From a virus: DNA of 64,000 nt. The notes beneath the pieces were generated by a model, which had not been told where the DNA came from, did no database searches, and was given only the letters and a program-made list of their open reading frames with translations. The stretch is from the IMG/VR virus record IMGVR_UViG_3300006802_000078, positions 27,626-91,625 of that record, one strand, 5' to 3'. This document shows, piece by piece, positions 9,156-60,997 of the stretch. Every line of letters begins with the position of its first letter. Position 1 is the first letter of the stretch. The position numbers and the translations under genes are program-made.

Positions 9156-9668
9156 TCAGTTCCCCGTGAAAGATGGGTGGCGGGCATTCGTCGGGATGTG
9201 GCCCAGCGCAGCCAAGCTCTGGAACCCGCCGCCATCGACGACGACCAGGTGGTCGAGCAGCGTGATGCCGATGACCTCGGCAGCCCTGCACAAACGGCGG
9301 GTCACCTCGATGTCCTCAGCCGAGGGCTTCGTGTCCCTGGATGGGTGGTTGTGCGCGATGATGAAGCACACCGCACGGTCGTAGGCCATGACTCGCCGGA
9401 GCACGACAGCCGGGTCAACGATGGTGCACTTCCCGTTGCCGACGCTGACCACCTCGACACCGAGCGGGCGGTTGTTTCGCAGCATCGGCACGACAACGAG
9501 CCGCTCCTCGCCGCTGCCGTCGAAGTAGGGCAGCACCAGCGCAGCAGCATCAGCAGGCGACAGCAGCGGCGCCTTCGGCACAGCCGGTGGAGCCAGCACA
9601 GCCACCGCCCGGCGCTGCTGGTCAGGCGTCGCCGCTTGCCAGAGATCCCAAAGCTCGCGCATCTTCAT
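9156..9668 (-). CDS. RadC-like JAB domain protein
   Basis: EERLVV..VSVG..IVDP..IIAHNHPS..PSAEDIEVT..GITLLDHLVV is the RadC/JAB motif set. Confidence 0.92.
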   Translation of the reverse strand: MKMRELWDLWQAATPDQQRRAVAVLAPPAVPKAPLLSPADAAALVLPYFDGSGEERLVVVPMLRNNRPLGVEVVSVGNGKCTIVDPAVVLRRVMAYDRAVCFIIAHNHPSRDTKPSAEDIEVTRRLCRAAEVIGITLLDHLVVVDGGGFQSLAALGHIPTNARHPSFTGN

Positions 9669-15549: not shown

Positions 15550-15960
15550 TCACCTCTCCCAGCGAGCGCGCATGGCCGCGATCTTCTCGACGGGCACACC
15601 GTGCACGCAGCGCGCGGCCAGCTCCTCGTCGGACAGGCCGGCATCGAACAGGTCGATGGTCCGCACATTCGCGCCGAAGCAACGGGCCATCTCCCGGTAG
15701 AGGAGCATCTCCCACTGCTGGCTGAAGGTGTTGGCCACGGCCACGTTGAAGCCGAGAGCCAGCGCGTGCAGACATGCAGCTTGGCAGCGGGCGTGCGCCT
15801 CACCAAGCCGGGCGGGATCGAACGCGTAGTTGCCGCGCTCGTCGACCATGTAGTCGTCGGCCGACAGCGCGACACTCACGGCGCCGGTGGCCTCGAGCTC
15901 GTCCGCGAAGGTGGACTTGCCCGCACCGGGCAGGCCTCGGATCTCGAACAGGGTAGGCAT
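15550..15960 (-). CDS. P-loop kinase (AAA_33 / polynucleotide-kinase-like)
   Basis: IRGLPGAGKST Walker A, SADDY, VANT, RCVHGVP; AAGGAG RBS. Confidence 0.88.
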   Translation of the reverse strand: MPTLFEIRGLPGAGKSTFADELEATGAVSVALSADDYMVDERGNYAFDPARLGEAHARCQAACLHALALGFNVAVANTFSQQWEMLLYREMARCFGANVRTIDLFDAGLSDEELAARCVHGVPVEKIAAMRARWER

Positions 15961-16627: not shown

Positions 16628-16735
16628 CTACGGGAAGGTGGTGGTGACGAAGAAGAGGAGGCCGCCGAGTGCGGTTCCGATGGGCAGGGCCAGCCCCAGG
16701 CTGAGCGCCGCCTCGATGAGGATGAGGCGCAGCAT
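16628..16735 (-). CDS. small membrane peptide (35 aa)
   Basis: TGATG coupling; fully hydrophobic. Confidence 0.5.
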   Translation of the reverse strand: MLRLILIEAALSLGLALPIGTALGGLLFFVTTTFP

Positions 16736-16980
16736 CACCGCATCTCGGCGGCGTCGCGCAGCAGGTCGAGGCGCAGGGCCTCGGCCTCGTGGGCGCTGCG
16801 ACGGAAGCCATCCGCCCGCTCGGGACAGCGCTCGGCGGCCTGGCGCAGCCCGGCGGCGAGCTTCTGCTGCTCGAAGGCCCGCTGCTGCAGGCGCTTCCGG
16901 CGCTGGGTACGCGCGCGGGCGGCCGCGCCGTCGGTGGCGAGGAACCCTGCGCTCTTCAGCGCGTCGTACATCTGGTTCAT
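16735..16980 (-). CDS. basic helical hypothetical protein (81 aa)
   Basis: GGGAG RBS, MNQMYDALK. Confidence 0.65.
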   Translation of the reverse strand: MNQMYDALKSAGFLATDGAAARARTQRRKRLQQRAFEQQKLAAGLRQAAERCPERADGFRRSAHEAEALRLDLLRDAAEMR

Positions 16981-17004
16981 TTGCATCTCCCGCATCTCTC
17001 GTGG

Positions 17005-17140
17005 TCAGTCGGCAGTCCACTTGGACCAACGTGTGTTGGTTGCAGGCCCACGCCATTGCCCCACGCGCGGCGTCATTGCCGCACGCTCGGCTTCGCACCT
17101 GCATTACCCGTGGCTTTAGCCTCAGTTGCCTGCGGTCGAG
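17005..17140 (-). ncRNA. putative structured RNA element downstream of the tRNA-like RNA
   Basis: Nested helices GGC/GCC, CCAC/GTGG, TGCAGGT/GCCTGCA, GCGTGCGGC/GCCGCGCGT, ACCAAC/GTTGGT, plus a CAG-GCAA-CTG GNRA hairpin; intergenic. Confidence 0.5.
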
Positions 17141-17153
17141 TTATGGCATCAAG

Positions 17154-17379
17154 TGGTGGAGGCGAGCGGCTTCGAACCGCCCGTCGAGTATCGCAACCTC
17201 GGATCTGGGGGGCCACGGCTGGGCTCAGGCGCTGGCGCGCTCAGCTCACGGTGTGCATGTGCACCTGCACACCGGCCAGACGCGCCGTGCCCCGCCCCGG
17301 GGCGTATGGGGTAGCCGCAGCAGGCGACCCCCAACAACGAGGATGCACTCGGCGCCGGCGCCACCTGCCGGCCGCCCCC
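17154..17379 (-). ncRNA. tRNA(Ala)/tmRNA-like RNA, 226 nt, with long rod replacing the anticodon/tag domain
   Basis: 5' GGGGGCG pairs with 3' CGCCTCC-A-CCA (G3:U70, A discriminator); T-arm GGCGG-TTCGAAG-CCGCT; long helical insert; lies in an intergenic gap. Confidence 0.75.
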
Positions 17380-17385
17380 GTATGG

Positions 17386-17625
17386 TCACTCGTCGTGGAA
17401 GGTCTTCGCCTCGGCGACTGCTGCTTCGAGGCTGTCGAAGATCATGACCTCCCCCGCGTCGCCCACGATGGGGCGCCACGAGGTGAAGCCGCTCATGGCG
17501 ATGAGCCGCCACTGCCCATGGGCGATGCGCTCGGCGCGCAGCTCCCCGAGCCCGGGGTAGACGTAGCCGGTGGGCTCACCGGGAACTTGGCCGCAGGGGC
17601 GACCGGGGACACGACGTGTGGTCAT
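17386..17625 (-). CDS. hypothetical protein (79 aa)
   Basis: MTTRRVPG, ATGA coupling. Confidence 0.6.
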   Translation of the reverse strand: MTTRRVPGRPCGQVPGEPTGYVYPGLGELRAERIAHGQWRLIAMSGFTSWRPIVGDAGEVMIFDSLEAAVAEAKTFHDE

Positions 17626-20149: not shown

Positions 20150-21285
20150 GCTCTATCTGTTGACCCTACGCGCGGGCACACCCCTTCGATGGGCTGGCGC
20201 GTAGTCGGAGCCGAAAGCAAAGACATAAGCATAGGGCCAGGGCAGCTTAGCTGCCCTGGCCCATTCGGGTTTGGCGAGCCCAGCAACGGCGCGAGGGCGC
20301 CGATACCAGCTTGACCGTGGGTTATCCCCGCGGCCCCTGTCATCGCCCGCTAGGGCTCTGGTTCGAAGCTGCAATATCGACCAATGGGCTCCCCGTATCG
20401 TTTCCGGATCATGGCCCATTGTTCCCTCGTGGGTGCGCCGTTGCGGGGCCCACCTACACTGTCGGCTTCGGGATAGCCGACGATAGCGACCGATCGCCGT
20501 TGTCAATGGCGACGCGCTATCTGTTTATGTGTGTGAATACCGTTCAAACGACCGCCGCCGGTATCCTACCCGGTACGCTACGCCGTTTCGTCGCTTCACC
20601 CTACTGTATGTGAGGCGGTATTGGCGTCTATCCGTCGAGACGCGCTACCCACCGCCGATCCTTTGCTACCCGCGCCACGATCCCGCTTCCTGCCCTCTGG
20701 TTCCTTTCACCGGGAGCGCCGGGGCCGCGGGCTACTGCCACCATGGGGGCCGCCTACGCTTGTGAAGGGGGCGCCCATGGCGCGGGGTAGCTGCTACCGC
20801 CGTCGCTGAGGGAGGGGGGGTCGTGGGGGGTGTCAAAGGGCGCAAGCCGACTACCTGTCGCCGACCCTCGGGGGCTACCTCCGGGGCGACGGATCCCGCT
20901 ATCGAGCGGCCGAGTGGACCCTTGGGTGATGCCATAGGGCGCGCACGTCGAGACCCGGATCCCCACTGGTGTCCCGGGCGACAGCTACAGAGGACGGAGG
21001 GAGGGCTTACCGGGTAGTCGCGCACGGGGCGGAAAGTGACGCGTCGTCGCTTGCCGTGGCGTTACTGCCTTCCTCCTCCCGTGCGCCGACATAGGGGCCG
21101 AAGCCCTTGCTGCGGGTGGGGGGCGGATCAGATCACCAGACAGGGGACACCGTCCGCTATGCCGCGGAGGAGGCGCCTGTCTGTACGGGTAGGGGCTGAA
21201 AAAGACCGAAGGGGGCCGAGCGGGGGTTAGCCGTCCGCCCTCTGAGGAGGACCAGGGAGTCCCCTGGTCCTGCACAGAGGGCAGC
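20150..21285 (-). ncRNA. candidate large structured RNA / leader (~1.1 kb)
   Basis: No credible ORF; more than a dozen consecutive stem-loops, including a perfect 13-bp hairpin at 20234-20262. Confidence 0.45.
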
Positions 21286-47653: not shown

Positions 47654-50600
47654 ATGCCGACCCCCACTCCCACGCCCGACAAGCTGACCGAAGAAGACCT
47701 GGCTCCGTTCGGGGATCTCTTCGGTCCACCCCCCGCTGCCCCTCCGGGCACGAAGAAGCTGCCGGCCACGAGCGCCGGCGGGCCAGTGATGGTGGACGAC
47801 GCCCACCTCAAGGACGTCAACCCGAAGGTACCGGAGCCGAAGGCGAAGGAGCCGAAGGCGAAGGCCGCGGAGCCGGCGCCGAAGGCGAAGGCCGCGGAGC
47901 CGGCGCCGAAGGCGAAGGCCGCGGAGCCGGCGCCGAAGGCCCCGGAGCCGAAGCCCGCGGAGCCCGCGCCGAAGCCCGCGGAGCCCCCGAAGGCGAAGGC
48001 CGCGGAGCAGCTGGAGTCGGCCGAGGAGACGCTGCCCCCCACCTCCCGCCCGCTGCCCCCCACCGACGAGGTGGCGGCTGCGCGCGCCGCGCTGGAGCCG
48101 CTGAAGCAGAAGGCCACCGAGGAGCGCGTCGCCGCCACTGCTGCGGACCAGCGCAGCCAGGCCGACGCGTTGGAGCTGCGCCGCTTGCTGGACGGTGCGG
48201 TCATGCTCTACGCCCCGTACAGGAGCGCGGTGGAGCGGGAGCAGGCGGCCGCCACTCCAGAGATGGGGATGCCTATGCCCTCCCTGCTGTCCGGCGGGGC
48301 GGCGCTCCGGTCGGCAATGGCGCTGGGCTTCGCCGCCGCCGCGCGCACGGGAGACCCGAAGGTCTACAAGGGCTTCGAGGCCGCCGCCGTGCTGAAGCAC
48401 ATCGGTCGGATGAAGCGCGAGGCCGAGGCGGGCGGTGGCAGCGCGCCCTACATGAGCCCGAGCGAGTACTGGGCAGCGGCCCGCGCGTCCGGTGTTCCGC
48501 TGGAGCAGATGCTCCGCGAGATCGTGATCGACAACAAGCGCGTCGACGACGTCATCGACGACGCTGTCTCTCGCAGCCAGGACCCTCGCGTCAAGGCGAT
48601 CCTGCTGCGGGCGAAGGCGCAAGGCGCCGGGCAGCAGCAGCAGCGCAGCGCGATCGACAAGGTCGTCGACGTCGCCAAGGCCCCGCTGGGCGTGCTCGCT
48701 CCAGGACCGTCTGAGGCGAGCAAGGCGGAGGCCGCAGCGAAGAGCCAGGCAGTGCGGGCCGAGGCTGCGGCGAAGGCAGGGCAGCTGGAGCGGGCCGCTG
48801 CCATCGAGGCGACGGGGAGCGTGCGCCAGCGGGCCAAGATCGCCGACGCTGGGATCCGCGAGATGTACGCCGCGATGAGCGGGGACGCCGATGAGCTCGC
48901 CGACGCCAGCCGGGAACGCGAGGAGGCGGAAGCCAAGTACCGGCGGCTCCACGGGGGCCGCATGGCGGCGTCCCTGCGCGAGACGACGCTGCGGGATTGG
49001 ACCGGCACCCAGGCCACCTCTGGCGTCATGGGCGTCTCGGAGCGGGATCCGGACGTCGACTTCGACAGCGCCCAGGCTCAGGCGACGGCCATCACGCTGC
49101 TGCGGGAGATGATGCCTCCCGAGGCGCGAGACCTGAGCGACGACGAGCTGGTGATGGCTGCGCCTCAGAAGTCCCCGCTGGTGCAGAGCTTCGTCCAGGC
49201 CACGCGCTTCGCCGGGGGTCACCGTGGGTGGATCGAGCAGCGCGCCGACGCGATCCAGCGCGCCAAGTCTCAGGCGCTGACGCGAGAGGGGAAGAACCCC
49301 GCCGAGGCATACGGGCCCGGGATGCGGGCGGATGCCGTCGCAGAGGCTGTGAGGGAGGCGACGGTCTTCCGCGTCGTGGGGCTGTGGGGGGGCCCGCTGA
49401 TCATCAACCTGGCCCAGCTCACCGGAGAGCAGGCGCAGCGTGGAGAGGAGATCTCCCTGGCTGACGCCATGAAGGCGCAGGTCGAAATCGTCGGGCTCGA
49501 CCGCAACGGCGTGGTCATCTACCGCCAGGAGTCGGTGCCGTCCTGGCTGTTCGGGCTGGCCGACATGCCGATCCAGGCGGCCATGGCCTACTACGAGGTG
49601 GCGAAGGAGAACGTCACGGGCGAGCGAGACAACGCCGACGCGGAGCGGAACTGGTACGACATCGGCCAGAAGTTCCGCAGCAACGTCGCTCGCCGGCACG
49701 GCTTGCTCGATCTCGCCATCGAGACGGGGGTGTTCACCGACGAGAACACGGCAGTGATCCCGGTCGACCAGGACAGCCCGTGGCATCCGTACGCCAAGGC
49801 CACGGAGCAGCTCGCCCTGGGCGGGGCTGCGGTCGTCGCGACGATGCTGGCTCCCGACATGTTCATGGTCGCGGGGGGCGTCGGGGGGTCTGTGCGCGGG
49901 GCGATGGCGACCCGCCGCGCGGCCAAGGTCGCGGAGGGGCTGAAGTCCGCGTCGACGCTGCTGCGCGAGGCCCACGCTCTGGGCGAGGCGGGCAAGATCG
50001 ACGAGGCGGTGGCTGCGCTGCGCAAGGCCGAGGCCATCGAAGTGGCGCTGCGGAAGTCCAACCCGGAGATCATGCGTGCGGTCGACCGCGCTGACGTGGC
50101 GGCCTACGAGAAGGCCACCGCCGACGGCGGCGCGGTGGCGGATCTCCGCACCCGGAAGGAAGCGGGCGGTGTCCTGCCTGGTGCGCTGGGCAAGGAGGCC
50201 CAGACCCTGCACCCCGGCATGCGGGTCGACGCGCTGAAGCAGGGGGAGGCGGTGGATGACGCCGCCGACTTCCCTCACCTGTTCAACTACGCCAACCCCC
50301 TGCAGGACGCGGCCAAGCTCAGCCCCGAAGACCTCGCCCAGGCAGGGCGTCGCCACGCGGCGGCGAAGGTGGTGGGCGAGGAGGGCAACAAGCTCCGAGC
50401 CAGCGCTGCCAAGATCAAGGACCCTGCGGGCCGGGAGGAAGTGCGGCTCTTCATCGAGGAGCAGCTCGCCATCATCCAGGACAAGGCGGCGCACGGGATC
50501 GACAAGACGACGATGCAGAAGGAGCTGCGTGACGCCGTCGCGGCCCGGTTCGTCGGCGACGACAACAAGCCGCTGCGGGAGGGGCTCTACAAGAAGCTCA

Positions 50601-53600
50601 CCGGCTTGGGGGGGCGCGCGGTCGAGGCGGCTGAGAAGGCCGACCCGCTGGACCCTGTGCGGGCCATCCTGGGCAACATCGCGTCGCGCGCCGAGGGGCA
50701 CGAGGTCATGGCGAACGCCTCGAAGAAGGCGCTGGGCATGACCACGAACCTGCTGAAGGAGGGCAAGTACGCGTCGGAGGCCAGCATCCTGCGTGCCATC
50801 GCCCAGGACGCCGCCGACGCAGCAGGCATCGAGGATGCCACCGCGCGTGCAGTCTTCATCGAGAAGCGGATCAAGCAGTGGCAGAAGGCGCTGTCGACGG
50901 GCAAGCCGATCGATGTTGTCGGGCGGCGGATCACCATCGACGACGTGGTGCGGGAAGACACCCTGGTGCGCCAGCGGGTGCGCGACGGGCTCACCCCACA
51001 GCAGGCCATGGACGAGTGGCGCGCGAAGGTGCCCGGCAAGGTCGAGGCCGCGGCTGCGCCGAAGGGGCCGGAAGGGTCGAAGGGGCCGGAAGGGTCGAAG
51101 GAAAGCGGAGAGGACTACGCCGAGCGCCCGACCGTGGTGGAGAAGAAGCCCGCTGCCGCTCCCGACCCCGATGTGGAACGCCCGACCGAAGTGGACCGGG
51201 ACACCGTGGTGGTGCCTGCGGCGGACTCAACCCAGGGCCGCGCCCGCGCTGCTGCCACGCCGGAGTGGACTCCGGAGCGGACCCAAGCGGTCGCTCCCGA
51301 CGACGACAGCACCGCGGCTCGCATCGCCGGGCTGAAGCCGAAGGAGCCGACGGACGCCGCCTTGCCTCGGTGGCAGCGGGTCTCGCCTGCTCGAGGGCGG
51401 GGCGAAGCTGCGATGAAGGGGGATGGCCCCCAGGCGTGGGCTCCGGGCAAGGAGCCGGCGGAGCCGGCGCCTGCTGCGCCAGCGGCTGCGGCTGCGCCAG
51501 CAGCGCCGAAGGCGGCGCCGAAGGCGGCACCCCCCGCCGAGCCCCCGCCCGCGGCAGCGGCAGCGGCGGCAGCTGCGCCTGCCTCCACTCCGGCGCCGAA
51601 GGCCGCGCCCGCGGCAGTGGCGCCCGCGCCGAAGCGCGAGCGACCCCCCACGCGGAAGGAGAAGATCCAGGCATCGGCGAAGAAGCTGATGGACGCTTCG
51701 GTGGCGTCGCCCACGAACGAGGGCATCGCGTCCGCGGACGACTTCAACGAGGCCATGGCCATGGTCCTCAAGGATCTCGGCTACGACGACGACGTCATCC
51801 AGGCGGTCGCCCACGGCAAGACCGATGTCGTCGTCTCCGGTAAGATCAAGAGCCCCCGCGCGCTGCGGAACCAGGTGCGGGACCTGCTGGATGAGGCATA
51901 CGCTGCCGCTGGCATCGAGCGGCCCCCCCGGCTGGTGCAGACCGCGCAGGGCGACTGGCTGGAGTACGCCGACGGCACCCGCCTGAACTGGCTGCCGAAG
52001 GAGGAGCGAGCTGCCGCTCTGGCGGGGCTGAGCGAGGATGCCGAGGAAGTCGCCGACGTGGCGGACGTGGCCGAGGAAGTCGCGGACGTGGCCGAGGAAG
52101 TCGCGGACGTGGCCGAGGATGCGCCCAAGGTGGCGGCCGCCCCCGAGCCCGCTGCGGCGCCGGAGCCGCTGCCGGAGCCGCTGCCGAAGGCGGAGGCGGC
52201 GCCTGCTGCGCCTGCTGCGCCTGCGCCTGCCGCGCCTGCTGCGCCTGCTCCCCCCCGGGAGAAGATGACGGTGCCGGAAGAGTGGGCCGCGGAGCAGCTG
52301 GGCTTGGAGCACATCGACGACTTCGACGCGAAGAGCGCCACTCCGGAGGACTTGTCGGGTCTGGGCGGAGCCTACAACCAAGCGAAGGAGATCGGCGACG
52401 CCGAGACCGCGCTCTACCTCGAAGGGCTGATCATCGAGGCGGTGGACAAGATCGCCGACATGGCCGACCCGGGTGACATGGGCGGTCTGCTCCTGAAGGT
52501 CGACAGCGACAAGCTCGTGCGCAGCCTGCGCTTCTACGCTGACCACAGCGTGACCGACCCCAAGAAGCTGCAGAACGTAGCCGATGCCATCGAGGGGTAT
52601 CGAGGGTTCAAGCACCAGTCCTCCCCCGAGGTCGCCGCGGCCATGGCCGACGCCCGTCGCGCGTCGAAGGCGGCTGCGGCTGCGCCCCAGCAGGTCGGCC
52701 TCCCCCTCCCTGCGCCTGCGGCTGCGCCGGCAGCGGCAGCAGCGTCGCGCCCCCACATCGCCCAGGTCGGTGCGGCCGAGGCGAAGAAGATCATCAACAG
52801 CGCCTCCCTCGACCAGCTCGATGAGCTGTTCCACGAGGAGGCGTCGCGCGGCACCAAGGCTCGCAAGGGGGTGGTGTCGGCCATCGACCAGCGCCGGGCG
52901 GCGCTGCAGGCCGAGGCCGGGCTGCCTGTGACGGAGTCCCCCGTGCTCGAAGCCCCGAAGCCGGTGAAGGAGCCGAAGCGGGCGGCGCCGCCGAAGCCGG
53001 TGTTCACCGAGCAGCAGCAGAACTTCCTCGACAAGGTGCGGCAGGGTCGGGCCACGTCGCGGGCGATGGAGGAAGAAAGACTCAAGGCGAAGAACGCGGG
53101 CGACGTCGCGTACCTCAAGGCAATGATCGAGGCGGAGGCCAACGTGCCGGGGAGGGCCTCGGTCAAGCGGAAGCTCGACAACGACCTCGACGTGGTGCAG
53201 ACCCGCAAGGCGCTGAAGTTCGACGCTGCGCTGCTCTCCGAGGCGCCGGACGCCGTGAGCCCCCGCCGGGCCCAGGCCTCGGCGGCGCGGGAGCTCGACG
53301 ACCTGCTCGACCAGGCGAGCGACGCCGCGGCCCAGGTGCTGACCCCTGAGGCCAACCGCGGGCGGACCGGCAACGTGATGCGGAGCGCGCTGGAGTCCAC
53401 GCTGGCCACCCGCGGCACGGGCGGGGTCGACGCGGTCGAGCTGGCCAGCCGGGTCGCGCCCGAGGTCCAGGCGGTGGCGACGGCAGAGGAGGAGGCCATC
53501 CGCGCCCGGCGGCTGCGCTTCGACGCGTCCGCCATGCGGGGGCGGCTGGTCCCCGGCTCGAAGAAGCGGGTGGTCGCGGCCCAGCGGGCGCTCGAGGATG

Positions 53601-56600
53601 CCGAGGCTGCGCTGCGCCAGGCCCACGCGCGGCTGGAGGTCGCGCTCGCCACGGGAGTGCGGGAGCAGCTCGGCGCCGAGTGGCGGGCGCTGCCGATCCG
53701 GCCGGAGGCGACGACCCGGGGCCTGGAGGCGCTGGCTCGGCGGATCCTGATGGCGGAGGGCGAGGGTGAGGGTGCCTTCCCCCTGCTCCACCTGGTGACC
53801 CAGCTCGCGATGGACGCGGGCCAGGGGGGCGACATCGACTTCCTCCGGCTGCGCATGGGCGGGACCGCTGATGCAGCTGCGGGCGACTACAAGCCGATCC
53901 GCAAGGTCATCGCCATCGGGGACGAGGCGATTGCCCGCCTGCGGGCAGGTGACAGCATGGGCCTGCGCGTGGCGGCGCATGAGATCGGCCACGCTGTGGC
54001 GGCGCTGCTCGACGAGGAGCAGGTGGGCAAGCTCGCGGAGCAGTACGCCCGGGACGTGCGGCGGGCCGCCCAGGGGGGAGGCGGCCGCACCGGCCGCGCC
54101 ATGGCCATGGACCTGATGGCTGGCGGGGACAAGGCGCCGCTGGCGCGGTACCGCTACCTCTCCTTCGACGAGTGGGTGGCAGAGAAGTACGCCGACTACG
54201 CCATGCGGCAGGTGAGCTTCAACCGCCTGTCCCCGTTCTGGCGGGGCATGGTGATGAGCGTCGATCGGATCACCACCCGGATCGGCCACACCCTGGGCTG
54301 GGACTCGGTCGAGATCTTCATCCAGCAGGCCCTGCGTGATCCACTCCGCACTGCGACATCGGCCACGCTCGAAGAGCGGATGCAGGCGAAGGCGGTCATC
54401 GAGGGTGGGCGGAACATCGCCAGCGAAGCCCGGCTGCAGGTGCTCTCGGAGTACGGCGCGATGGCGGAGGAGGAGGCGACGGCGTCCGCGCGCCTCGATG
54501 CGGCCGCGCGCCTGGTGGACGAAGCCGCCAGCGAAGCTGAGCCCTCGCTCAAGATGTTCCTGGGCGAGCGTGGGGCGGAGACGCTGGACGAAGCCGACGC
54601 GAGCCGCTGGGGCAGACACGCGGACGACCCGATGATGATCGAGCTGGAGCGCGCGCGGCAGATGCTGGATGACGGTACCAGCGCCGAGGAGGTGTGGAAG
54701 AACACCGGCTGGCGGCGGGGCCCCGACAACGCATGGCGCTTCGAGATCGACGATAGCGGCGCCTACCTGAAGCGCGACGCGTTCCAGCGGGCGAAGACGG
54801 AGAAGGCGAGCCCGGGGAGCAAGGCCGGGGTCAAGACGCGGCTGGGCGACCTGATACGCCACCCCCGCCTGTTCGAGGCGTACCCCGAGCTCAAGGACGT
54901 CGTCGTCGTCATGGGCGAGACCGACAACCCGGCGCTGCTGGGGCAGTTCGTCACCGACGCGTTCGGTGGCGTGGGCGCCATCCACGTCTTCAACCCGAAG
55001 CGGCAGACCCACGAGCAGATCCTGAAGACCATCCTGCACGAGGTGCAGCACAACATCCAGGAGATCGAGGGCTTCGCCGAGGGCGGCGGCTGGGAGATCA
55101 GCCCGGAGGGTGAGGCGCTGGTCCAGCGGATCTTCGACAAGGCGCAGGCGCTGCGCGACCGCCGCCAGGAGTGGCACATCACGGACGAGCTCCTGATGGC
55201 CCAGGCGAAGGACAAGGTGTACCGGCGGACCTACGGAGAGGTCGAGGCCCGCAACGTCGAGTCCCGCATGGGGCTGGATGAGCGCGGTCGCGCGGCGAAG
55301 TTCCCGACCAAGACGCAGGACGTGGCCGACAGCAACGCCATCATCGTGTGGAACGGTGAGGTGATGGGGTCGCCGAAGGCGTCGCGGGCGCCGGTGGCGG
55401 CGACTGCGGAAGCTGCGGGCGCTCAGGTGCTCAGCAACGCCGGCGCGACTCCGGAGCGCGAGGTCGCGCGCATCGCCGAGGAGCTCCGGCGGGAGCAGCC
55501 ATCGATCGCTGAGGTGGTCGACCGGGCGGCTGTTCGCGGTGCTTCGACTGACTCCGACACGCGCTACAAGGTCGGTTTGCAGCGTCCCGTCGAGGGTCTT
55601 CGCGGGTTCGAAAGCGGTGGCAAGTTCCATCGTTTTGTCGCTGAGCACGGGGAAGAAGGCGCGCTTCAACTGGTGCGCGCCAGCGCGGTGGAGGCAGTGG
55701 CTGACGGCGCCGCTCCAGAGCTGGTCGCAGCCCTGGTTGAGCTCCGCACCCGCGCGATCCGCGACCCGAGCTACGTGGAAGTCGTTCCGCCGGGGCGGAC
55801 CTACCCACGGTGGAACTCTGGCGGATCGGCGCTGCCGACGTGTGAGCACCGCCTGCGCGATCTTGAGCGAGATCTGGCGCAGCTGGCTTCGAGCCTGAAC
55901 GATGGCGTGTCTCAGTGGGGTACGCTGAACGCCGAGCAGGCGCGCGAAGCACTGGCAGCTATTGCAGGCGCCACGCTGGACGATCTGGTCGCTGGCCGTG
56001 TGTCACCGCGGTTCGCGAGTGTGTCTAGTGTGGAGTGGCGCATCGTGGCGATCGAGAGGTCAGCACAGCGTCTCCAGGAGAGCGTGCGCGAAGCATCGGA
56101 GCTTCTTGGGTTCGACGTACCGATGCCGCACCCGACGGGGCACGCGTACTTTGGCAAAGAAGCGTTCTACGGGAGGCTGGCGGATGGCGCAAGCCAGGGT
56201 AGCTACGAGGCCGCTGCGAACTGGATCAAGCGGAAGACGCCTCCGCCCAAGCAGAGAGCCGGCTTCGACACCTTCGGCACCCACGCCGACGTCGACACAT
56301 CCAGGGCCGCCGTGGTGCCTGAGAGCCTGGACCCGCAGCGGAAGATCGGGAGCGAGATTCTCGGTGACTTCGAGCGGAAGCCGGAGGCGCCAGAGGGTAC
56401 GGGCACGCCTCGCGACATCGACACCAAGCGGCTGCCCCCGGAGAAGGAGCGGCAGGCGGCTCGTGGGCGCAGCGACATGCGGCGGCGCATCTACGACGAG
56501 CAGGAGAAGCTCTGGAAGGCGTGGACCAAGGACAGCCGTGTCGCGACCATCACCGACGCGGACTACGCCACGGTGAAGGCGTTCCTGGCCATGGTCGGCA

Positions 56601-59600
56601 GCGAGCGTCTGAAGAGCGTCGGGCTACTCATCGTCCCTGAGATCCCCTCCTGGCGAGGCACCATCCTGGGGCAGTACAACTTCGCGAGTGACGTGGTCAC
56701 GATCTCGCATGCGGCGACTTCGTCGGGGCGGTTCACGGACACGACCATCCATGAGCTCTGGCATGCGCTGAGCCGCTACATCGGCAACGACCGCGTCGAT
56801 GGGCTCTACAAGGAGTTCATTCGGGAGCGTGAGGCCTACAAGGCGGCGCACCCGGCGGAGTTCGACCTGCGGGGCAACCTGAAGGAGATCCACCACACGC
56901 CGACCCACTCTGGGTACCGCTACTCGTCCATCGACGAGTGGGTCGTCGAGAAGATGAAGGACTTGAGCATCTCGGACGCGACCCGCAAGGCGCAGGCCGA
57001 TCTGGTGCGGCGTGGCATGCTCCGCACGACTGAGGGCGGGCAGCCCCCTCCGCCGGTGGTCGAGACCCTGCGCGGCCTGCGCGACCTTGTCACGAGCCAC
57101 GTCGGCCACATGGTCTCCCGCTGGTCGAACGACCAGGTGTTCAAGACCTACGACGAGTTCATGACGGGAACCATCACCGAGATGGCCCGACGGGACACGC
57201 TGGGCCACGAGGTGGAGCGTCTCGGCCTCGCCACGCAGGAGGTGCAGCAGACGCTGCGCGACCGTGCTCGTGCCTTCGTCGAGAGCCTCATGGACCGGCT
57301 GCGGGGAACGACCAAGCCGGACATGCAGCTCGATCAGGAGGCGGCAAGCTACGTTGGCGACGTCATCAAGACCTCGCCATCGCGGCAGGCGCTTGAAGAG
57401 CGCGCCGGGCTGGAGCAGCTGCGGCGGGTGCTGGAGCAGCAGGTAGCAGTCGATGAAGGCGGGAGGGCGACCGAGCAGTCGCTCCGCCTGCCCTCCGCCA
57501 CCCTCGCCGGCGTGCCCCCGACTTCGGGCGAGCCGGGGGTCACGCGCGTCCCGTACGGCCGCAGCCGGACCCTCGGAACCACGTCGACGTCCGAGCTGCT
57601 GGCCACCTCGGACGACGCCGAGTCCGGCATGCTGAGCCACGCGCTCCGGCGCGTCGTGCTCATGCTGGGGGACAACGAGCGCAGGGCCATGCAGCTCTTC
57701 CCACCCCACCTGCAGCAGGTGCTGCTGGCGGGCAACCGCAAGGTCAGCGCCGCGGTCAACGACATGCAGGTCATCCTGTCCGAGGCCGACTTCGGCAAGG
57801 TGGTCGACTACATCGACGGCAAGCAGGTGGAGCTGCGGGGCGCCGGGGTGGCGCCGTCCAGCGGCAGGCGCGCCGTCCGTGTCGGGCTTCGGCCGGGGGA
57901 GGCGGCCAGCTCCTCGCCCATCGAAGACCTGCGCTTCGCCATCAACACCTGGATTGAGACCCAGCCGCCCGCGGTCCAGGCCGGGCTGCGCGCCTTCGCC
58001 GAAGGGGAGTCCATCAACAGCCCCCAGGTGGGCAACGCGCTCGTCGACGCCCTGAGCCGCCGGTCGAACCGCGCGCCGGACGTCATCACCGCGTTGGTCT
58101 ACTCGACGCTGCCCCCCGGGGACAACGTGCCCGCGTTCGAGCGGGCCGCCGCGGGCCACCTGGTCGTGGAGGATCTCCACCGCTACCCATCGGTGTGGGC
58201 TCCGATGCGCGCCATCCTGCGCGACTCGCTGACGCCGCCGGCGGACGGATCGTCCCGCCAGCTGCTGCACGACCTCGCGAACCTGGAAGCGAAGGGCAAG
58301 CACGCTCGCCCCTCCCGTCGGAGCATCCGCGTCGGTCGCGCGGCCACGGTCATCGCCGGCTACTCCGGCGCGGCCCACGCGTTCGACCTGTGGCGGGACA
58401 TGGGCATCGGCATCGATCCTGCCCTGGCCCTGGCTGCCACCACCCTCGCTCGGGGGGGCAGCCTCAACACGCTGCCGCCGGATGTGCTGAAGCGCGTCGC
58501 CGCGCTGGCTGTGGAGGCAGGAGCTCCAGACGCGCGCGCGCTCGCCGAGCGGGTGCTGCAGCGCACCGGGACGGCCAAGGGTGCGGCTCACTGGAAGTCT
58601 CCAGTCGGCGTTGACCCGGCCTCGGTCGAGTACGCCCCCCACGTCAAGAAGGCGCGGGCCGAGGCTGAGGCTGCCGCAGAGGCGCTGACCGGCGTGGCGC
58701 GGCGGGAGGCCATCCAGGCCAGCGTGGCGGCGGCGTCTGAGGGGGAGACCTTCTTCCCCGAAGCCGCGGTCCGCATGATCGACGCTGCGCTTGACCGCGC
58801 CATCGACGAGGCCGGGATCCTGAAGGAGCACGGCAAGCTCGGGAAGGGCGAGATCGCTGCGGACATGGCTCTTGATGGCCTGCGCGCGCTGAAGGCAGCC
58901 GTGACCAAGGGCGTGTTCTTCCCCCGCAACGCCATGATCACCATGGATCAGTTCGACGCGGCGCGACAGACGGCCATCGGGTACGGCTACCGCCAGGCGG
59001 CGCGGAACGCGGTGCGGCAGTCGCTGCCCTCGCTGGTGGCGCTGGCGCCGGGCGGCGGCATCGCGCTCCGCACCAGTGCGGGGCAGCGGGTGCTGGCTGC
59101 GGCGCAGAACGTGGGCGATGCCTCCGCCAAGGGGATTGGATACCTGCTCGGCATCGACAATGGCGAGGTCGTGGTGCTGCGCGCTCCGACCAAGGAGGGG
59201 GCGACGAAGCTGCAGGTGGCGGCGTCCGCTGCGCGCGACTTCCTCGGGGTCGAAGACATCATCAACGGCACCGACGCGGTGTTCGCCATCGGCGACAGCG
59301 TGGCCCGAGGCTCGGACCTGCAGCAGATCGCGGTGGAGACCGGTGTCATCCAGAAGTTCGCTTCGATGGGAACCGAGCGGACCTTCTCTGGAGGGCGCCG
59401 GCTCAAGGGGCTGGAGCTGTCGCCGAGGGAGGCCCACCTGCTGGGTGACGACGTCGCGCGGCAGTGGGATGACTTCGTGGAGGATCTGCATGCGGTCGTC
59501 GAGCAGCCCGCAGGCTGGGCCAGCGACAAGGTCAAGGGCTGGGTGGCGGGCACCCAGGGCATCGTGGAGGACATGAGCGTCCGCAGCCGCGTCGGGCTCT

Positions 59601-60997
59601 GGCTCGGGCTCATCGAGGAGGGGTACGACCCTCGCATCGCGGGGCAGATCGTCAACAAGATCCTCTTCGACTACGCCACCAGCGTGACCGCGGCTGAGAG
59701 GAACAACCTCTTCCTCGGGATCCTGTTCCCCTTCTGGGCCTACCAGAAGAACATGAACCGCTTCGCCCTGGACATGGCGGCGCTGCCCGAGACGGCCTAT
59801 CGCTGGCACGCGCTGCGCACCCTGGAGCAGGACGGCGGGCAGCTGCTGACCGAGGTCATCTACGACATGACCCACGACGCGTACGGCGTCGATGAGAGCA
59901 GGCTCGATGAGCGCGACCGCGCTGCCTACGCCGTGCTCCGCTCCCGCCTCGAGCTCGGCTGGGGTCCGATCGCCGAGCTCGCACCCGACACCCGCCAAGC
60001 GTTGGAGACGATACTGGGGGGCCACGGGCCGATCGAGGAGTGGCCCCCCGAGCTGCGCTACGCGATTGAGAACGGGTACGGCTCACCCTCGCGGATGCCC
60101 AACGACCTGCGCCAGGCGGTCGGGCTGCTGTTCCGCGGCCCCGATGGGAGGCTCACCTCGCGAGACGGTGATCAGCTGATCCTGTCTGGGATGGCTCAGG
60201 TCCATGTGCGGAGGCCGCCCGCGATGACGGGCGAGGCGGTCGACGAGTACCCCGTGCGGGGAGGGAGGAAGAGCTTCTACCGGGACCGCCCCGGCGTCGA
60301 TGTGCTGTCCGCAGTGAAGGCAGACACCAGGGCGTACCTGAGCCAGATGTCGGCGGCGGACCGCTACCTGTTCATGCTGCCGCCGAACGGGGTCGACGAC
60401 GCGGTGAAGATGATGGCGCTGGTACCGATGGCCCTCGCGCTCATCCCGCTCACCCTCCAGGAGGCGCTCGTCGACGAGGACGGCAGCTTCTCCGACATGA
60501 ACGTCGAGACGAAGCGGTCGCTGCTGCTCCGCGCCGTGTCTGAGAGCATCTCCCCCTCCCGCGCGCTGGGATGGAGCGACGTCGGCCACATCATCACGGG
60601 CTCGGAGGACATCGGGTCCTGGCGCAGTGTCTCGCCTCTGACGGGCATGGTCATGGAGAAGCTGGGGCTGCCCGTCAGCATCTCGATGGAGGAGCGCGAC
60701 TCCGAGGGGAACCTGAAGAAGGAGCGGAAGTACTCGCTGCCCCCTGGTGCGATGTCGCTCGTCTACCAGGGGATCGGAGGAACCAGCCTCGTGTCCTCGG
60801 CCGACGCGCTCTACGCCGCAACAAAGTGGGCGCTCGACGAGCCGAGCGGAACGGCGATGGAGCAGGCCGAAGGCGCAGACGTGGCGTTCTTCATCGCCAT
60901 CGCGAAGATGCTCGGCGTGTCCGTCGACGAGTACTCCCCGGAGCAGACCGCGGGAAGACTGGCGCGAGACACCAAGCCACCTCCGGCGGGGCGGTAG
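47654..60997 (+). CDS. giant polyvalent internal virion protein (4447 aa) with three zincin metallopeptidase motifs and an LPD23-like domain
   Basis: HEIGH (53978), HEVQH (55037), HELWH (56750); WKNTGWRRGPDNAWRFEIDD..HPRLFEAYPEL; C-terminal FDY..FPFW. Confidence 0.85.
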   Translation: MPTPTPTPDKLTEEDLAPFGDLFGPPPAAPPGTKKLPATSAGGPVMVDDAHLKDVNPKVPEPKAKEPKAKAAEPAPKAKAAEPAPKAKAAEPAPKAPEPKPAEPAPKPAEPPKAKAAEQLESAEETLPPTSRPLPPTDEVAAARAALEPLKQKATEERVAATAADQRSQADALELRRLLDGAVMLYAPYRSAVEREQAAATPEMGMPMPSLLSGGAALRSAMALGFAAAARTGDPKVYKGFEAAAVLKHIGRMKREAEAGGGSAPYMSPSEYWAAARASGVPLEQMLREIVIDNKRVDDVIDDAVSRSQDPRVKAILLRAKAQGAGQQQQRSAIDKVVDVAKAPLGVLAPGPSEASKAEAAAKSQAVRAEAAAKAGQLERAAAIEATGSVRQRAKIADAGIREMYAAMSGDADELADASREREEAEAKYRRLHGGRMAASLRETTLRDWTGTQATSGVMGVSERDPDVDFDSAQAQATAITLLREMMPPEARDLSDDELVMAAPQKSPLVQSFVQATRFAGGHRGWIEQRADAIQRAKSQALTREGKNPAEAYGPGMRADAVAEAVREATVFRVVGLWGGPLIINLAQLTGEQAQRGEEISLADAMKAQVEIVGLDRNGVVIYRQESVPSWLFGLADMPIQAAMAYYEVAKENVTGERDNADAERNWYDIGQKFRSNVARRHGLLDLAIETGVFTDENTAVIPVDQDSPWHPYAKATEQLALGGAAVVATMLAPDMFMVAGGVGGSVRGAMATRRAAKVAEGLKSASTLLREAHALGEAGKIDEAVAALRKAEAIEVALRKSNPEIMRAVDRADVAAYEKATADGGAVADLRTRKEAGGVLPGALGKEAQTLHPGMRVDALKQGEAVDDAADFPHLFNYANPLQDAAKLSPEDLAQAGRRHAAAKVVGEEGNKLRASAAKIKDPAGREEVRLFIEEQLAIIQDKAAHGIDKTTMQKELRDAVAARFVGDDNKPLREGLYKKLTGLGGRAVEAAEKADPLDPVRAILGNIASRAEGHEVMANASKKALGMTTNLLKEGKYASEASILRAIAQDAADAAGIEDATARAVFIEKRIKQWQKALSTGKPIDVVGRRITIDDVVREDTLVRQRVRDGLTPQQAMDEWRAKVPGKVEAAAAPKGPEGSKGPEGSKESGEDYAERPTVVEKKPAAAPDPDVERPTEVDRDTVVVPAADSTQGRARAAATPEWTPERTQAVAPDDDSTAARIAGLKPKEPTDAALPRWQRVSPARGRGEAAMKGDGPQAWAPGKEPAEPAPAAPAAAAAPAAPKAAPKAAPPAEPPPAAAAAAAAAPASTPAPKAAPAAVAPAPKRERPPTRKEKIQASAKKLMDASVASPTNEGIASADDFNEAMAMVLKDLGYDDDVIQAVAHGKTDVVVSGKIKSPRALRNQVRDLLDEAYAAAGIERPPRLVQTAQGDWLEYADGTRLNWLPKEERAAALAGLSEDAEEVADVADVAEEVADVAEEVADVAEDAPKVAAAPEPAAAPEPLPEPLPKAEAAPAAPAAPAPAAPAAPAPPREKMTVPEEWAAEQLGLEHIDDFDAKSATPEDLSGLGGAYNQAKEIGDAETALYLEGLIIEAVDKIADMADPGDMGGLLLKVDSDKLVRSLRFYADHSVTDPKKLQNVADAIEGYRGFKHQSSPEVAAAMADARRASKAAAAAPQQVGLPLPAPAAAPAAAAASRPHIAQVGAAEAKKIINSASLDQLDELFHEEASRGTKARKGVVSAIDQRRAALQAEAGLPVTESPVLEAPKPVKEPKRAAPPKPVFTEQQQNFLDKVRQGRATSRAMEEERLKAKNAGDVAYLKAMIEAEANVPGRASVKRKLDNDLDVVQTRKALKFDAALLSEAPDAVSPRRAQASAARELDDLLDQASDAAAQVLTPEANRGRTGNVMRSALESTLATRGTGGVDAVELASRVAPEVQAVATAEEEAIRARRLRFDASAMRGRLVPGSKKRVVAAQRALEDAEAALRQAHARLEVALATGVREQLGAEWRALPIRPEATTRGLEALARRILMAEGEGEGAFPLLHLVTQLAMDAGQGGDIDFLRLRMGGTADAAAGDYKPIRKVIAIGDEAIARLRAGDSMGLRVAAHEIGHAVAALLDEEQVGKLAEQYARDVRRAAQGGGGRTGRAMAMDLMAGGDKAPLARYRYLSFDEWVAEKYADYAMRQVSFNRLSPFWRGMVMSVDRITTRIGHTLGWDSVEIFIQQALRDPLRTATSATLEERMQAKAVIEGGRNIASEARLQVLSEYGAMAEEEATASARLDAAARLVDEAASEAEPSLKMFLGERGAETLDEADASRWGRHADDPMMIELERARQMLDDGTSAEEVWKNTGWRRGPDNAWRFEIDDSGAYLKRDAFQRAKTEKASPGSKAGVKTRLGDLIRHPRLFEAYPELKDVVVVMGETDNPALLGQFVTDAFGGVGAIHVFNPKRQTHEQILKTILHEVQHNIQEIEGFAEGGGWEISPEGEALVQRIFDKAQALRDRRQEWHITDELLMAQAKDKVYRRTYGEVEARNVESRMGLDERGRAAKFPTKTQDVADSNAIIVWNGEVMGSPKASRAPVAATAEAAGAQVLSNAGATPEREVARIAEELRREQPSIAEVVDRAAVRGASTDSDTRYKVGLQRPVEGLRGFESGGKFHRFVAEHGEEGALQLVRASAVEAVADGAAPELVAALVELRTRAIRDPSYVEVVPPGRTYPRWNSGGSALPTCEHRLRDLERDLAQLASSLNDGVSQWGTLNAEQAREALAAIAGATLDDLVAGRVSPRFASVSSVEWRIVAIERSAQRLQESVREASELLGFDVPMPHPTGHAYFGKEAFYGRLADGASQGSYEAAANWIKRKTPPPKQRAGFDTFGTHADVDTSRAAVVPESLDPQRKIGSEILGDFERKPEAPEGTGTPRDIDTKRLPPEKERQAARGRSDMRRRIYDEQEKLWKAWTKDSRVATITDADYATVKAFLAMVGSERLKSVGLLIVPEIPSWRGTILGQYNFASDVVTISHAATSSGRFTDTTIHELWHALSRYIGNDRVDGLYKEFIREREAYKAAHPAEFDLRGNLKEIHHTPTHSGYRYSSIDEWVVEKMKDLSISDATRKAQADLVRRGMLRTTEGGQPPPPVVETLRGLRDLVTSHVGHMVSRWSNDQVFKTYDEFMTGTITEMARRDTLGHEVERLGLATQEVQQTLRDRARAFVESLMDRLRGTTKPDMQLDQEAASYVGDVIKTSPSRQALEERAGLEQLRRVLEQQVAVDEGGRATEQSLRLPSATLAGVPPTSGEPGVTRVPYGRSRTLGTTSTSELLATSDDAESGMLSHALRRVVLMLGDNERRAMQLFPPHLQQVLLAGNRKVSAAVNDMQVILSEADFGKVVDYIDGKQVELRGAGVAPSSGRRAVRVGLRPGEAASSSPIEDLRFAINTWIETQPPAVQAGLRAFAEGESINSPQVGNALVDALSRRSNRAPDVITALVYSTLPPGDNVPAFERAAAGHLVVEDLHRYPSVWAPMRAILRDSLTPPADGSSRQLLHDLANLEAKGKHARPSRRSIRVGRAATVIAGYSGAAHAFDLWRDMGIGIDPALALAATTLARGGSLNTLPPDVLKRVAALAVEAGAPDARALAERVLQRTGTAKGAAHWKSPVGVDPASVEYAPHVKKARAEAEAAAEALTGVARREAIQASVAAASEGETFFPEAAVRMIDAALDRAIDEAGILKEHGKLGKGEIAADMALDGLRALKAAVTKGVFFPRNAMITMDQFDAARQTAIGYGYRQAARNAVRQSLPSLVALAPGGGIALRTSAGQRVLAAAQNVGDASAKGIGYLLGIDNGEVVVLRAPTKEGATKLQVAASAARDFLGVEDIINGTDAVFAIGDSVARGSDLQQIAVETGVIQKFASMGTERTFSGGRRLKGLELSPREAHLLGDDVARQWDDFVEDLHAVVEQPAGWASDKVKGWVAGTQGIVEDMSVRSRVGLWLGLIEEGYDPRIAGQIVNKILFDYATSVTAAERNNLFLGILFPFWAYQKNMNRFALDMAALPETAYRWHALRTLEQDGGQLLTEVIYDMTHDAYGVDESRLDERDRAAYAVLRSRLELGWGPIAELAPDTRQALETILGGHGPIEEWPPELRYAIENGYGSPSRMPNDLRQAVGLLFRGPDGRLTSRDGDQLILSGMAQVHVRRPPAMTGEAVDEYPVRGGRKSFYRDRPGVDVLSAVKADTRAYLSQMSAADRYLFMLPPNGVDDAVKMMALVPMALALIPLTLQEALVDEDGSFSDMNVETKRSLLLRAVSESISPSRALGWSDVGHIITGSEDIGSWRSVSPLTGMVMEKLGLPVSISMEERDSEGNLKKERKYSLPPGAMSLVYQGIGGTSLVSSADALYAATKWALDEPSGTAMEQAEGADVAFFIAIAKMLGVSVDEYSPEQTAGRLARDTKPPPAGR
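47830..48005 (+). repeat. coding tandem repeat (27-nt KAKAAEPAP units)
   Basis: GAAGGCGAAGGCCGCGGAGCCGGCGCC repeated three times plus degenerate copies. Confidence 0.85.
52040..52120 (+). repeat. coding tandem repeat (21-nt AEEVADV units)
   Basis: GCCGAGGAAGTCGCGGACGTG repeats. Confidence 0.85.

Follow-up and report, generated by a model that had tools for sequence, protein, structure and literature searches.

A tRNA-Ala-shaped RNA gene with a 148-nt rod in its anticodon-like loop in an uncultured freshwater phage

The tRNA genes of phages are commonly explained as aids to codon usage, or as substitutes for tRNAs that host defences have destroyed. An RNA gene of an uncultured phage raises the question of what a tRNA-like molecule might be for when the part that would read codons has given way to a long base-paired rod. 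The window analysed here, 64,000 nt in length, comprises bases 27626–91625 of the 91,625-bp IMG/VR virus record IMGVR_UViG_3300006802_000078, which is rated complete, has a GC content of approximately 69% and derives from freshwater metagenomes. Window positions are used throughout unless another locus is named. The gene occupies positions 17154–17379 on the minus strand (226 nt) and is delimited by its sequence, its fold and its lack of codon periodicity; index 1 of the RNA is window position 17379.

The tRNA body, the rod and their genomic setting

At its two ends the RNA has the shape of tRNA-Ala. The 5′ acceptor strand GGGGGCG (index 1–7, 17373–17379), which carries G3, pairs at 7/7 positions with the 3′ strand CGCCUCC (index 216–222, 17158–17164), which carries U70, giving a 7-bp stem that includes G3:U70 and is followed by discriminator A73 and an encoded CCA (3′ strand, A73 and CCA together at 17154–17164). 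A D-arm hairpin, GCCGGC/AGGUGGC/GCCGGC (index 8–26, 17354–17372), has a canonical 4-bp stem starting two bases after the acceptor strand and extendable to 6 bp, and its 7-nt loop, AGGUGGC, contains A14 and G18G19. The T arm, GGCGG-UUCGAAG-CCGCU (index 199–215, 17165–17181), is preceded by GAC-G and shows the complete signature (G53, T54, T55, C56, R57, A58 and C61). When compared with a metagenomic tRNA-Ala(UGC) (locus L043), 7/7 positions of the acceptor stem and 16/17 positions of the T arm were identical. A sequence-only reading of this DNA had already proposed these acceptor, T-arm and D-arm elements, all of which are in place on the minus strand, and had put the start of the RNA 6 nt after an upstream stop codon, which is likewise correct: the start lies 6 nt (CCAUAC) past the TGA at 17386–17388.

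Departures from tRNA structure are concentrated between these arms. Four extra bases after position 26 (CGCC), able to pair with the variable-region GACG, precede the 5′ stem strand GAGUG and C32 (together 17345–17353); on the other side, an anticodon-like U-UGC-G-A is followed by the 3′ stem strand UACUC (17186–17196). The anticodon-type stem GAGUG/UACUC lacks the closing 7-nt loop and runs on into the rod instead. Thus the acceptor with G3:U70, A73 and CCA, and the signatures of the T and D loops, are those of tRNA-Ala, whereas the 5-bp anticodon stem with 7-nt loop and the overall length of 73–93 nt expected of a tRNA are replaced by an insertion of 148 nt and a total of 226 nt. The core is also unlike that of canonical tRNA-Ala, with G rather than U at position 8, CGCC after position 26 rather than a single nucleotide 26, and G37 rather than A37.

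The insert (index 36–183, 17197–17344, minus strand) is a self-closing rod of ~55 base pairs located between positions 32 and 33 of the anticodon-like loop, and closure of the rod falls exactly on the insertion boundaries. Folded alone it reached −84.1 kcal/mol (z −3.04), with its ends, CCUCG and CGAGG, paired; the whole RNA folded to −131 kcal/mol (z −2.65), and to −123.5 kcal/mol when constrained to a cloverleaf. The stack of rod helices listed in the sequence-only reading was reproduced by ViennaRNA, except for GCUGCGGCU/AGCCGUGGC, which pairs in a different register from that of the minimum-energy fold. The rod bears a side hairpin (17295–17311, minus strand) and ends in an apical 9-bp hairpin (17249–17274, minus strand) with an 8-nt loop, GGUGCACA. 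No second copy of the insert was found in the phage genome. The apical loop includes the self-complementary palindrome GUGCAC, which resembles a kissing-loop dimerisation site and could support loop-loop dimers; as a 6-nt palindrome is expected in an 8-nt loop by chance in ~5% of cases, and chance may be at work here, it is noted only in passing.

How far might such a likeness arise by accident? Counting both strands, the 91.6-kb genome has only two T-arm-like motifs, and only that at 17165–17181 has an acceptor strand and ACCA after it. With the 3′ half held fixed and the upstream 333 nt dinucleotide-shuffled (n = 5000), a bare 7/7 acceptor partner appeared in 1647/5000 shuffles, but a 7/7 partner together with a D stem (canonical spacing, A14, GG in the loop) in only 16/5000. 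GC content by codon position within the RNA was 0.71/0.76/0.76, with no codon periodicity, in contrast to the strong periodicity of the two flanking genes (GC3 0.86 and 0.92). We accept the RNA gene as genuine, bearing in mind that high-GC sequence folds readily and that the z-scores are moderate.

The gene lies on the same strand as the leftward operon that surrounds it, a minus-strand gene block running from approximately window position 1 to 22000, and neither a sigma-70-like promoter nor an intrinsic terminator was found near it. The TGA mentioned above ends a 79-aa gene (17386–17625, minus strand, GC3 0.86) whose product has no Pfam or PHROG family. Downstream of the CCA end, a non-coding spacer of 158 nt (16996–17153, minus strand, GC 0.62, no periodicity) leads to the next gene (16735–16995, minus strand). 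This spacer had no Rfam match, and its candidacy as a second structured RNA was dropped on the grounds that its folding was no better than that of shuffles (z −1.73, not significant).

Among the neighbouring proteins, searches of Pfam, PHROG and PDB gave no matches except for a stand-alone 136-aa P-loop kinase of AAA_33/T4 polynucleotide-kinase type (15550–15960, minus strand), encoded in the same operon 1.2 kb downstream of the RNA (Pfam AAA_33, E 7e-13; PHROG 2071, E 2e-25; PHROG 505 ‘polynucleotide kinase’, E 5e-7). It has the motifs GLPGAGKST and SADDY and is without a phosphatase domain; no recognisable RNA ligase or RtcB was found in the phage. The kinase hints at a context of RNA damage and repair, a weak link because AAA_33 is a broad family.

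Judged by comparison of its TerL, the phage is an orphan: GenBank phage relatives were distant only (~23% identity) and none was found in IMG/VR. The proteins flanking the RNA likewise had no IMG/VR relatives, and a 96-aa neighbour matched only itself among 5.8 billion proteins. Elsewhere in the window, three further features were observed. Approximately 1.1 kb of the same leftward operon (20165–21285) is without a GC3-supported ORF and matched no Rfam family at gathering thresholds; the early operon also encodes a RadC-like JAB domain protein (9156–9668, minus strand, Pfam E 2e-27); and a single open reading frame of 4447 aa (47654–60997, plus strand) probably encodes a polyvalent virion or injected protein.

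Known RNA classes and the search for relatives

Standard annotation gave no account of the RNA. ARAGORN made no call on the window in default mode, did not detect the RNA when the full genome was run with -i under default settings, and made no call on the RNA itself in tmRNA mode (-m, 85% threshold); Rfam at gathering thresholds had no match in the window. This upholds the earlier verdict that the RNA conforms to no standard tRNA or tmRNA, as does the outcome of a permissive Rfam scan (E up to 10), in which the tmRNA model aligned to the two ends at 5.2 bits (E 8.6), compared with a gathering score of 47 bits for that model (RF00023). Besides this low score, a paired D hairpin and a continuous rod led to rejection of tmRNA as the class of the RNA. 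No tmRNA pseudoknot PK1, resume codon consensus or tag frame was found in it. The sequence-only reading had seen no frame giving a canonical tag, and indeed the frames that end in a stop codon give only ...HMHTVS* or AERASA*, non-canonical peptides encoded inside helices.

Other classes fared no better. No intron, ribozyme, YrlA or 6S RNA family matched the RNA in Rfam at E up to 10. A YrlA or Y RNA was rejected for want of an RF02553 match and of an adjacent Ro60 (TROVE) gene, none being found in the 91.6-kb genome. A group I intron was rejected on the absence of an RF00028 match at E up to 10 and on the C before the insert, the terminal G being the only group I hallmark present in the insert. 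Archaeal-type introns are marked at the exon–intron borders by a bulge-helix-bulge, in which a 4-bp helix lies between two 3-nt bulges, one on each strand; here there is one 3-nt bulge (or a 3×6 internal loop) with no opposing bulge, and this candidate was likewise rejected. An attP site carrying a tRNA 3′ half was rejected too: no tyrosine or serine integrase was found in this genome, rated complete, and no GTDB genome has the T arm plus acceptor of the RNA. The lack of any standard-detector match therefore sets the RNA apart from tmRNA, YrlA, group I introns and attP remnants, and the absence of Ro60, RtcB and integrase genes removes the Y-RNA, RtcB-linked and attP readings.

Relatives were sought widely. 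In blastn searches of GenBank phages, the locus and each of its ‘exons’ gave, apart from chance matches, only a T-arm/acceptor hit on another RNA family, described below. Exact and degenerate pattern scans yielded no homolog in IMG/VR, in JGI metagenome contigs or in GTDB genomes, nor did blastn against 401 alphaproteobacterial genomes and three MAGs, and a translated-frame search of the RNA region against protein databases found nothing. The RNA is thus a single sequence, a singleton, in the collections searched, and the gathering of homologs from related phage contigs that the sequence-only reading had proposed came back empty in those databases. A search of sequencing runs found no RNA run containing the locus, while in four public DNA runs the same strain was present as short contigs of low depth that showed neither variants nor joints. 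A search of the literature brought up no account of an RNA of this kind. One further stretch, on the minus strand of IMG/VR contig 3300017963_000011 (L060), may be another long tRNA-like RNA, on the strength of its sequence: it is 106 nt long and ends 425 nt into the reverse complement, a canonical T arm precedes its 3′-terminal CCCCUCC-ACCA, with which the 5′ end forms 7/7 pairs, and no tRNA solution of shorter length emerged.

The other family is a conserved group of alanine-acceptor RNAs of 213–221 nt (GGGGGCG...CGCCUCCACCA; alignment A1) with the motifs GGUAAAxCC, UUCUAAACC and GGGUAAUGC, observed in the tRNA arrays of phiCbK-like jumbo phages and in huge IMG/VR contigs, and also in MAGs of Hyphomicrobiaceae and other Alphaproteobacteria. 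One member lies in an unannotated gap between two tRNA-Ser genes of Brevundimonas phage vB_BpoS-Kabachok (ON529852.1; L121 1316–1533, plus strand); others are at L002 9668–9882 and L015 3022–3240 (both minus strand), in L039, L042, L045, L047 and L050, and in the MAG loci L122, L125 and L126. Pair-preserving compensatory change on both sides was seen in 23/44 of the predicted pairs. The family is unannotated, draws no ARAGORN call and scores 32 bits on the Rfam tmRNA model, below the gathering score, and it may represent a reduced, one-piece tmRNA-like RNA.

The rod-bearing RNA has in common with this family an identical acceptor (GGGGGCG/CGCCUCC-ACCA), a G:U-closed T stem, a similar length, a phage-borne location and the fact of being missed by standard annotation, but the family differs in its branched interior, its conserved motifs and its strong covariation. 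Membership of the family (A1/R1) was rejected, there being no full-length covariance-model match: the family model scored 17.5 bits on the RNA, covering the 3′ T arm and acceptor only, with the wrong 5′ partner and the interior skipped.

By analogy, the RNA appears most like a class of tRNA mimics that takes in T4 species 1 and 2, an engineered tRNA scaffold, the TLD-only tmRNA of phage DS6A and YrlA. Species 1 and 2 of phage T4 (rnaC and rnaD) are stable RNAs of 119–139 nt within a tRNA cluster; like the present RNA they are phage-encoded, tRNA-associated and non-decoding, although the RNA described here is the sole tRNA-like gene of its phage and the likeness is one of description. In the ‘tRNA scaffold’ that Ponchon and Dardel reportedly engineered in 2007, a structured RNA replaces the anticodon stem-loop, giving a chimera with the processing and stability of a tRNA, which is the same design, except that the scaffold is a laboratory construct whereas this would be a natural design with a putative payload. 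Group I introns also interrupt tRNA anticodon loops, as in cyanobacterial tRNA-Leu(UAA) and Azoarcus tRNA-Ile; they are ~200 nt or longer, have a P3–P9 core, follow a U and end in G. An interruption within the anticodon loop and an insert ending in G are points of similarity, but the insert is a 148-nt rod placed after C32 and has no Rfam intron match.

Mycobacterium phage DS6A encodes a TLD-only tmRNA with little beyond the tRNA-like domain, for which a block of host trans-translation has been proposed (Hudson, Lau & Williams 2014, PMC4131195); according to Mao et al. 2009, as cited in that paper, tmRNA is inhibited by a TLD-only molecule. Both the DS6A RNA and the present one are phage-encoded alanine-acceptor tRNA-like RNAs without a usable message, and either could soak up tRNA- or tmRNA-binding factors; the latter differs in its paired D arm, its 148-nt rod, its anticodon relic and its score of 5 bits on the tmRNA model. 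YrlA and other bacterial and phage Y RNAs (RF02553) join a tRNA-like module to a long stem and do not decode, and some of these RNAs are cut by RNase P and have CCA added (Chen et al. 2014, PMC4201824). The union of a tRNA-like module (T arm and D arm) with a long stem is shared, but YrlA has its ends in a Ro60-binding stem, carries a GNCGAA motif and is encoded beside Ro60, whereas the present RNA ends in an acceptor stem, matches no YrlA model and has no TROVE/Ro60 gene in its genome.

A proposed non-decoding mimic and its rivals

What best explains these features is an RNA derived from tRNA-Ala, excised by RNase P and chargeable with alanine, which does not decode and would serve as a scaffold or decoy; we hold this explanation tentatively, at a little short of even confidence. 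The gene would descend from a bacterial-type tRNA-Ala(UGC), the best argument for which is the agreement of the anticodon UGC with the alanine acceptor, and would be transcribed within the long leftward operon, without a promoter or terminator of its own, to give an RNA in which the 148-nt rod in the anticodon loop stacks on the anticodon stem. An acceptor/T-arm minihelix with a 3′ CCA is a sufficient, minimal substrate for RNase P, and AlaRS needs no more than an acceptor stem bearing G3:U70 and A73; hence the RNA should be excised by RNase P to leave a stable RNA of ~226 nt, and could be charged by the host AlaRS. Codon reading would be impossible with a rod of ~55 base pairs in place of the 7-nt anticodon loop, and because no decoding is possible the RNA would most likely be a mimic, scaffold or decoy; G8, the 4-nt insertion after position 26 and G37 argue against decoding even with the rod removed. 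The tRNA body would confer processing, stability and recognition by tRNA-binding proteins, and the payload would be the rod or the whole mimic, for example by acting as a sponge or decoy that occupies a host factor directed at tRNA. Cleavage by RNase P would also part the upstream from the downstream messages. A decoy for tRNA-cleaving defence nucleases and an RNase P punctuation signal were among the functions suggested in the sequence-only reading, and either may apply.

In favour of a non-decoding mimic are a tRNA body beyond chance (16/5000 shuffles, and one of two genomic T-arm motifs), the near-identity of its acceptor and T arm to those of the metagenomic tRNA-Ala(UGC), its non-coding character between two strongly periodic neighbours, an autonomous and unusually stable rod, a strand shared with the operon with no adjoining promoter or terminator, the silence of tRNA and tmRNA detectors, and a polynucleotide-kinase-type enzyme encoded 1.2 kb away. 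Weighing against it, the RNA is one sequence with no homolog found, and hence offers no covariation or conservation that would show selection on its structure; a high GC content favours stable folding in any case; processing, charging and stability are predictions; the kinase belongs to a broad family; and UGC at the anticodon position would be expected also of an interrupted or decayed tRNA gene. A bolder form of this explanation, which we consider rather unlikely, is that an alanine-charged, anticodon-less mimic made early by RNase P serves the phage in counter-defence or in taking over the host, for instance as a sponge or decoy for a host nuclease that targets tRNA or for some other factor that binds tRNA, its functional arm being the rod, perhaps dimerised through GUGCAC.

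A decaying tRNA-Ala gene, expanded at a hairpin or invaded by a palindromic element and retaining only an incidental RNase P site as a pseudogene, seems unlikely: it would fit a singleton with no conserved relatives found, a core that departs from the tRNA consensus and an insert that is a self-contained imperfect palindrome, but the acceptor, the signature bases of the T and D loops and the CCA are all intact, there is no target-site duplication, an active repeat element is at odds with the single genomic copy of the insert, and dead sequence is rarely retained in phage genomes. An interrupted but functional tRNA-Ala(UGC), from which the rod would be removed as an intron by an unknown self-splicing or protein-dependent route to leave a 78-nt product decoding GCN, strikes us as quite unlikely. 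Once index 36–183 is removed, a 5-bp stem is indeed left capped by the 7-nt loop C-U-UGC-G-A; U33 is in place, position 37 is a purine, the anticodon agrees with the alanine identity of the acceptor, the insert has a terminal G, and ARAGORN calls the rod-deleted construct as tRNA-Ala(tgc) at default settings. That call is marginal, however, being lost at a 110% threshold where a canonical tRNA-Ala holds to 120%, and a default call is obtained from 10/60 shuffles of the upstream sequence as well when the 3′ half is fixed; in intron mode at an 80% threshold, ARAGORN calls a tRNA in 397/400 shuffles, and the relaxed-threshold intron call was rejected as evidence after these controls. Moreover, none of the known splicing routes fits: no intron or ribozyme family matched, the insert, at 148 nt, is well short of known group I introns and too rod-like for one, the last base of the 5′ exon is C rather than U, and bulge-helix-bulge geometry and RtcB are both lacking. 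G8, CGCC after 26 and G37 are atypical for tRNA-Ala. Of the interrupted tRNA-Ala suggested by the sequence-only reading, the ancestry stands, with U-UGC-G-A correctly spaced from the 5-bp stem, while a working spliced tRNA is weakly supported.

That the fold merely directs an RNase P cut of an early polycistronic transcript, uncoupling the stabilities of its messages and leaving the released RNA without a job, is also improbable; a start 6 nt after a stop codon, the absence of an own promoter or terminator and the presence of a minimal RNase P substrate are what it would predict, but a minihelix would suffice, leaving a D arm with G18G19, an alanine identity pair and a 148-nt rod superfluous. 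It is very unlikely that there is no RNA gene here, only a DNA palindrome (a protein-binding site or replication element) with chance tRNA likeness, or a piece of a host tRNA gene carried at attP. Taken by themselves, the last 43 nt would pass for the tRNA 3′ half of attP in integrative phages, and a 7/7 acceptor partner on its own arises in a third of shuffles, but the combined features of the 5′ half are rare, no integrase was found in the genome, which is rated complete, and no GTDB bacterial genome has the T arm plus acceptor. Most doubtful of all, by analogy with DS6A, is a tag-less mimic of tmRNA type that would titrate SmpB, EF-Tu or AlaRS and so block host trans-translation. The alanine acceptor, the GAC ahead of the T stem and the inhibition of tmRNA by a TLD-only molecule cited above speak for it; against it stand the Rfam score far below gathering, the empty ARAGORN tmRNA mode, a D region that is a paired hairpin, a helix filling the space that SmpB occupies on tmRNA, and non-canonical peptides with no pseudoknot-plus-resume-codon layout or tag signal, and the tmRNA mimic put forward in the sequence-only reading is accordingly disfavoured.

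A proposed further form of phage tRNA mimicry

As a singleton from an uncultured phage, the case is of limited value on its own. RNA genes of such a type are missed by standard annotation with ARAGORN and Rfam, and the object is a further form of phage tRNA mimicry, derived from tRNA-Ala, with a putative function. Should it prove functional, it would parallel in nature the tRNA scaffold devised in the laboratory, and could give access to a host factor by which the shape of tRNA is recognised. A tRNA body fit for processing and alanine charging, yet non-decoding, would point to another use that phages make of tRNA mimicry.
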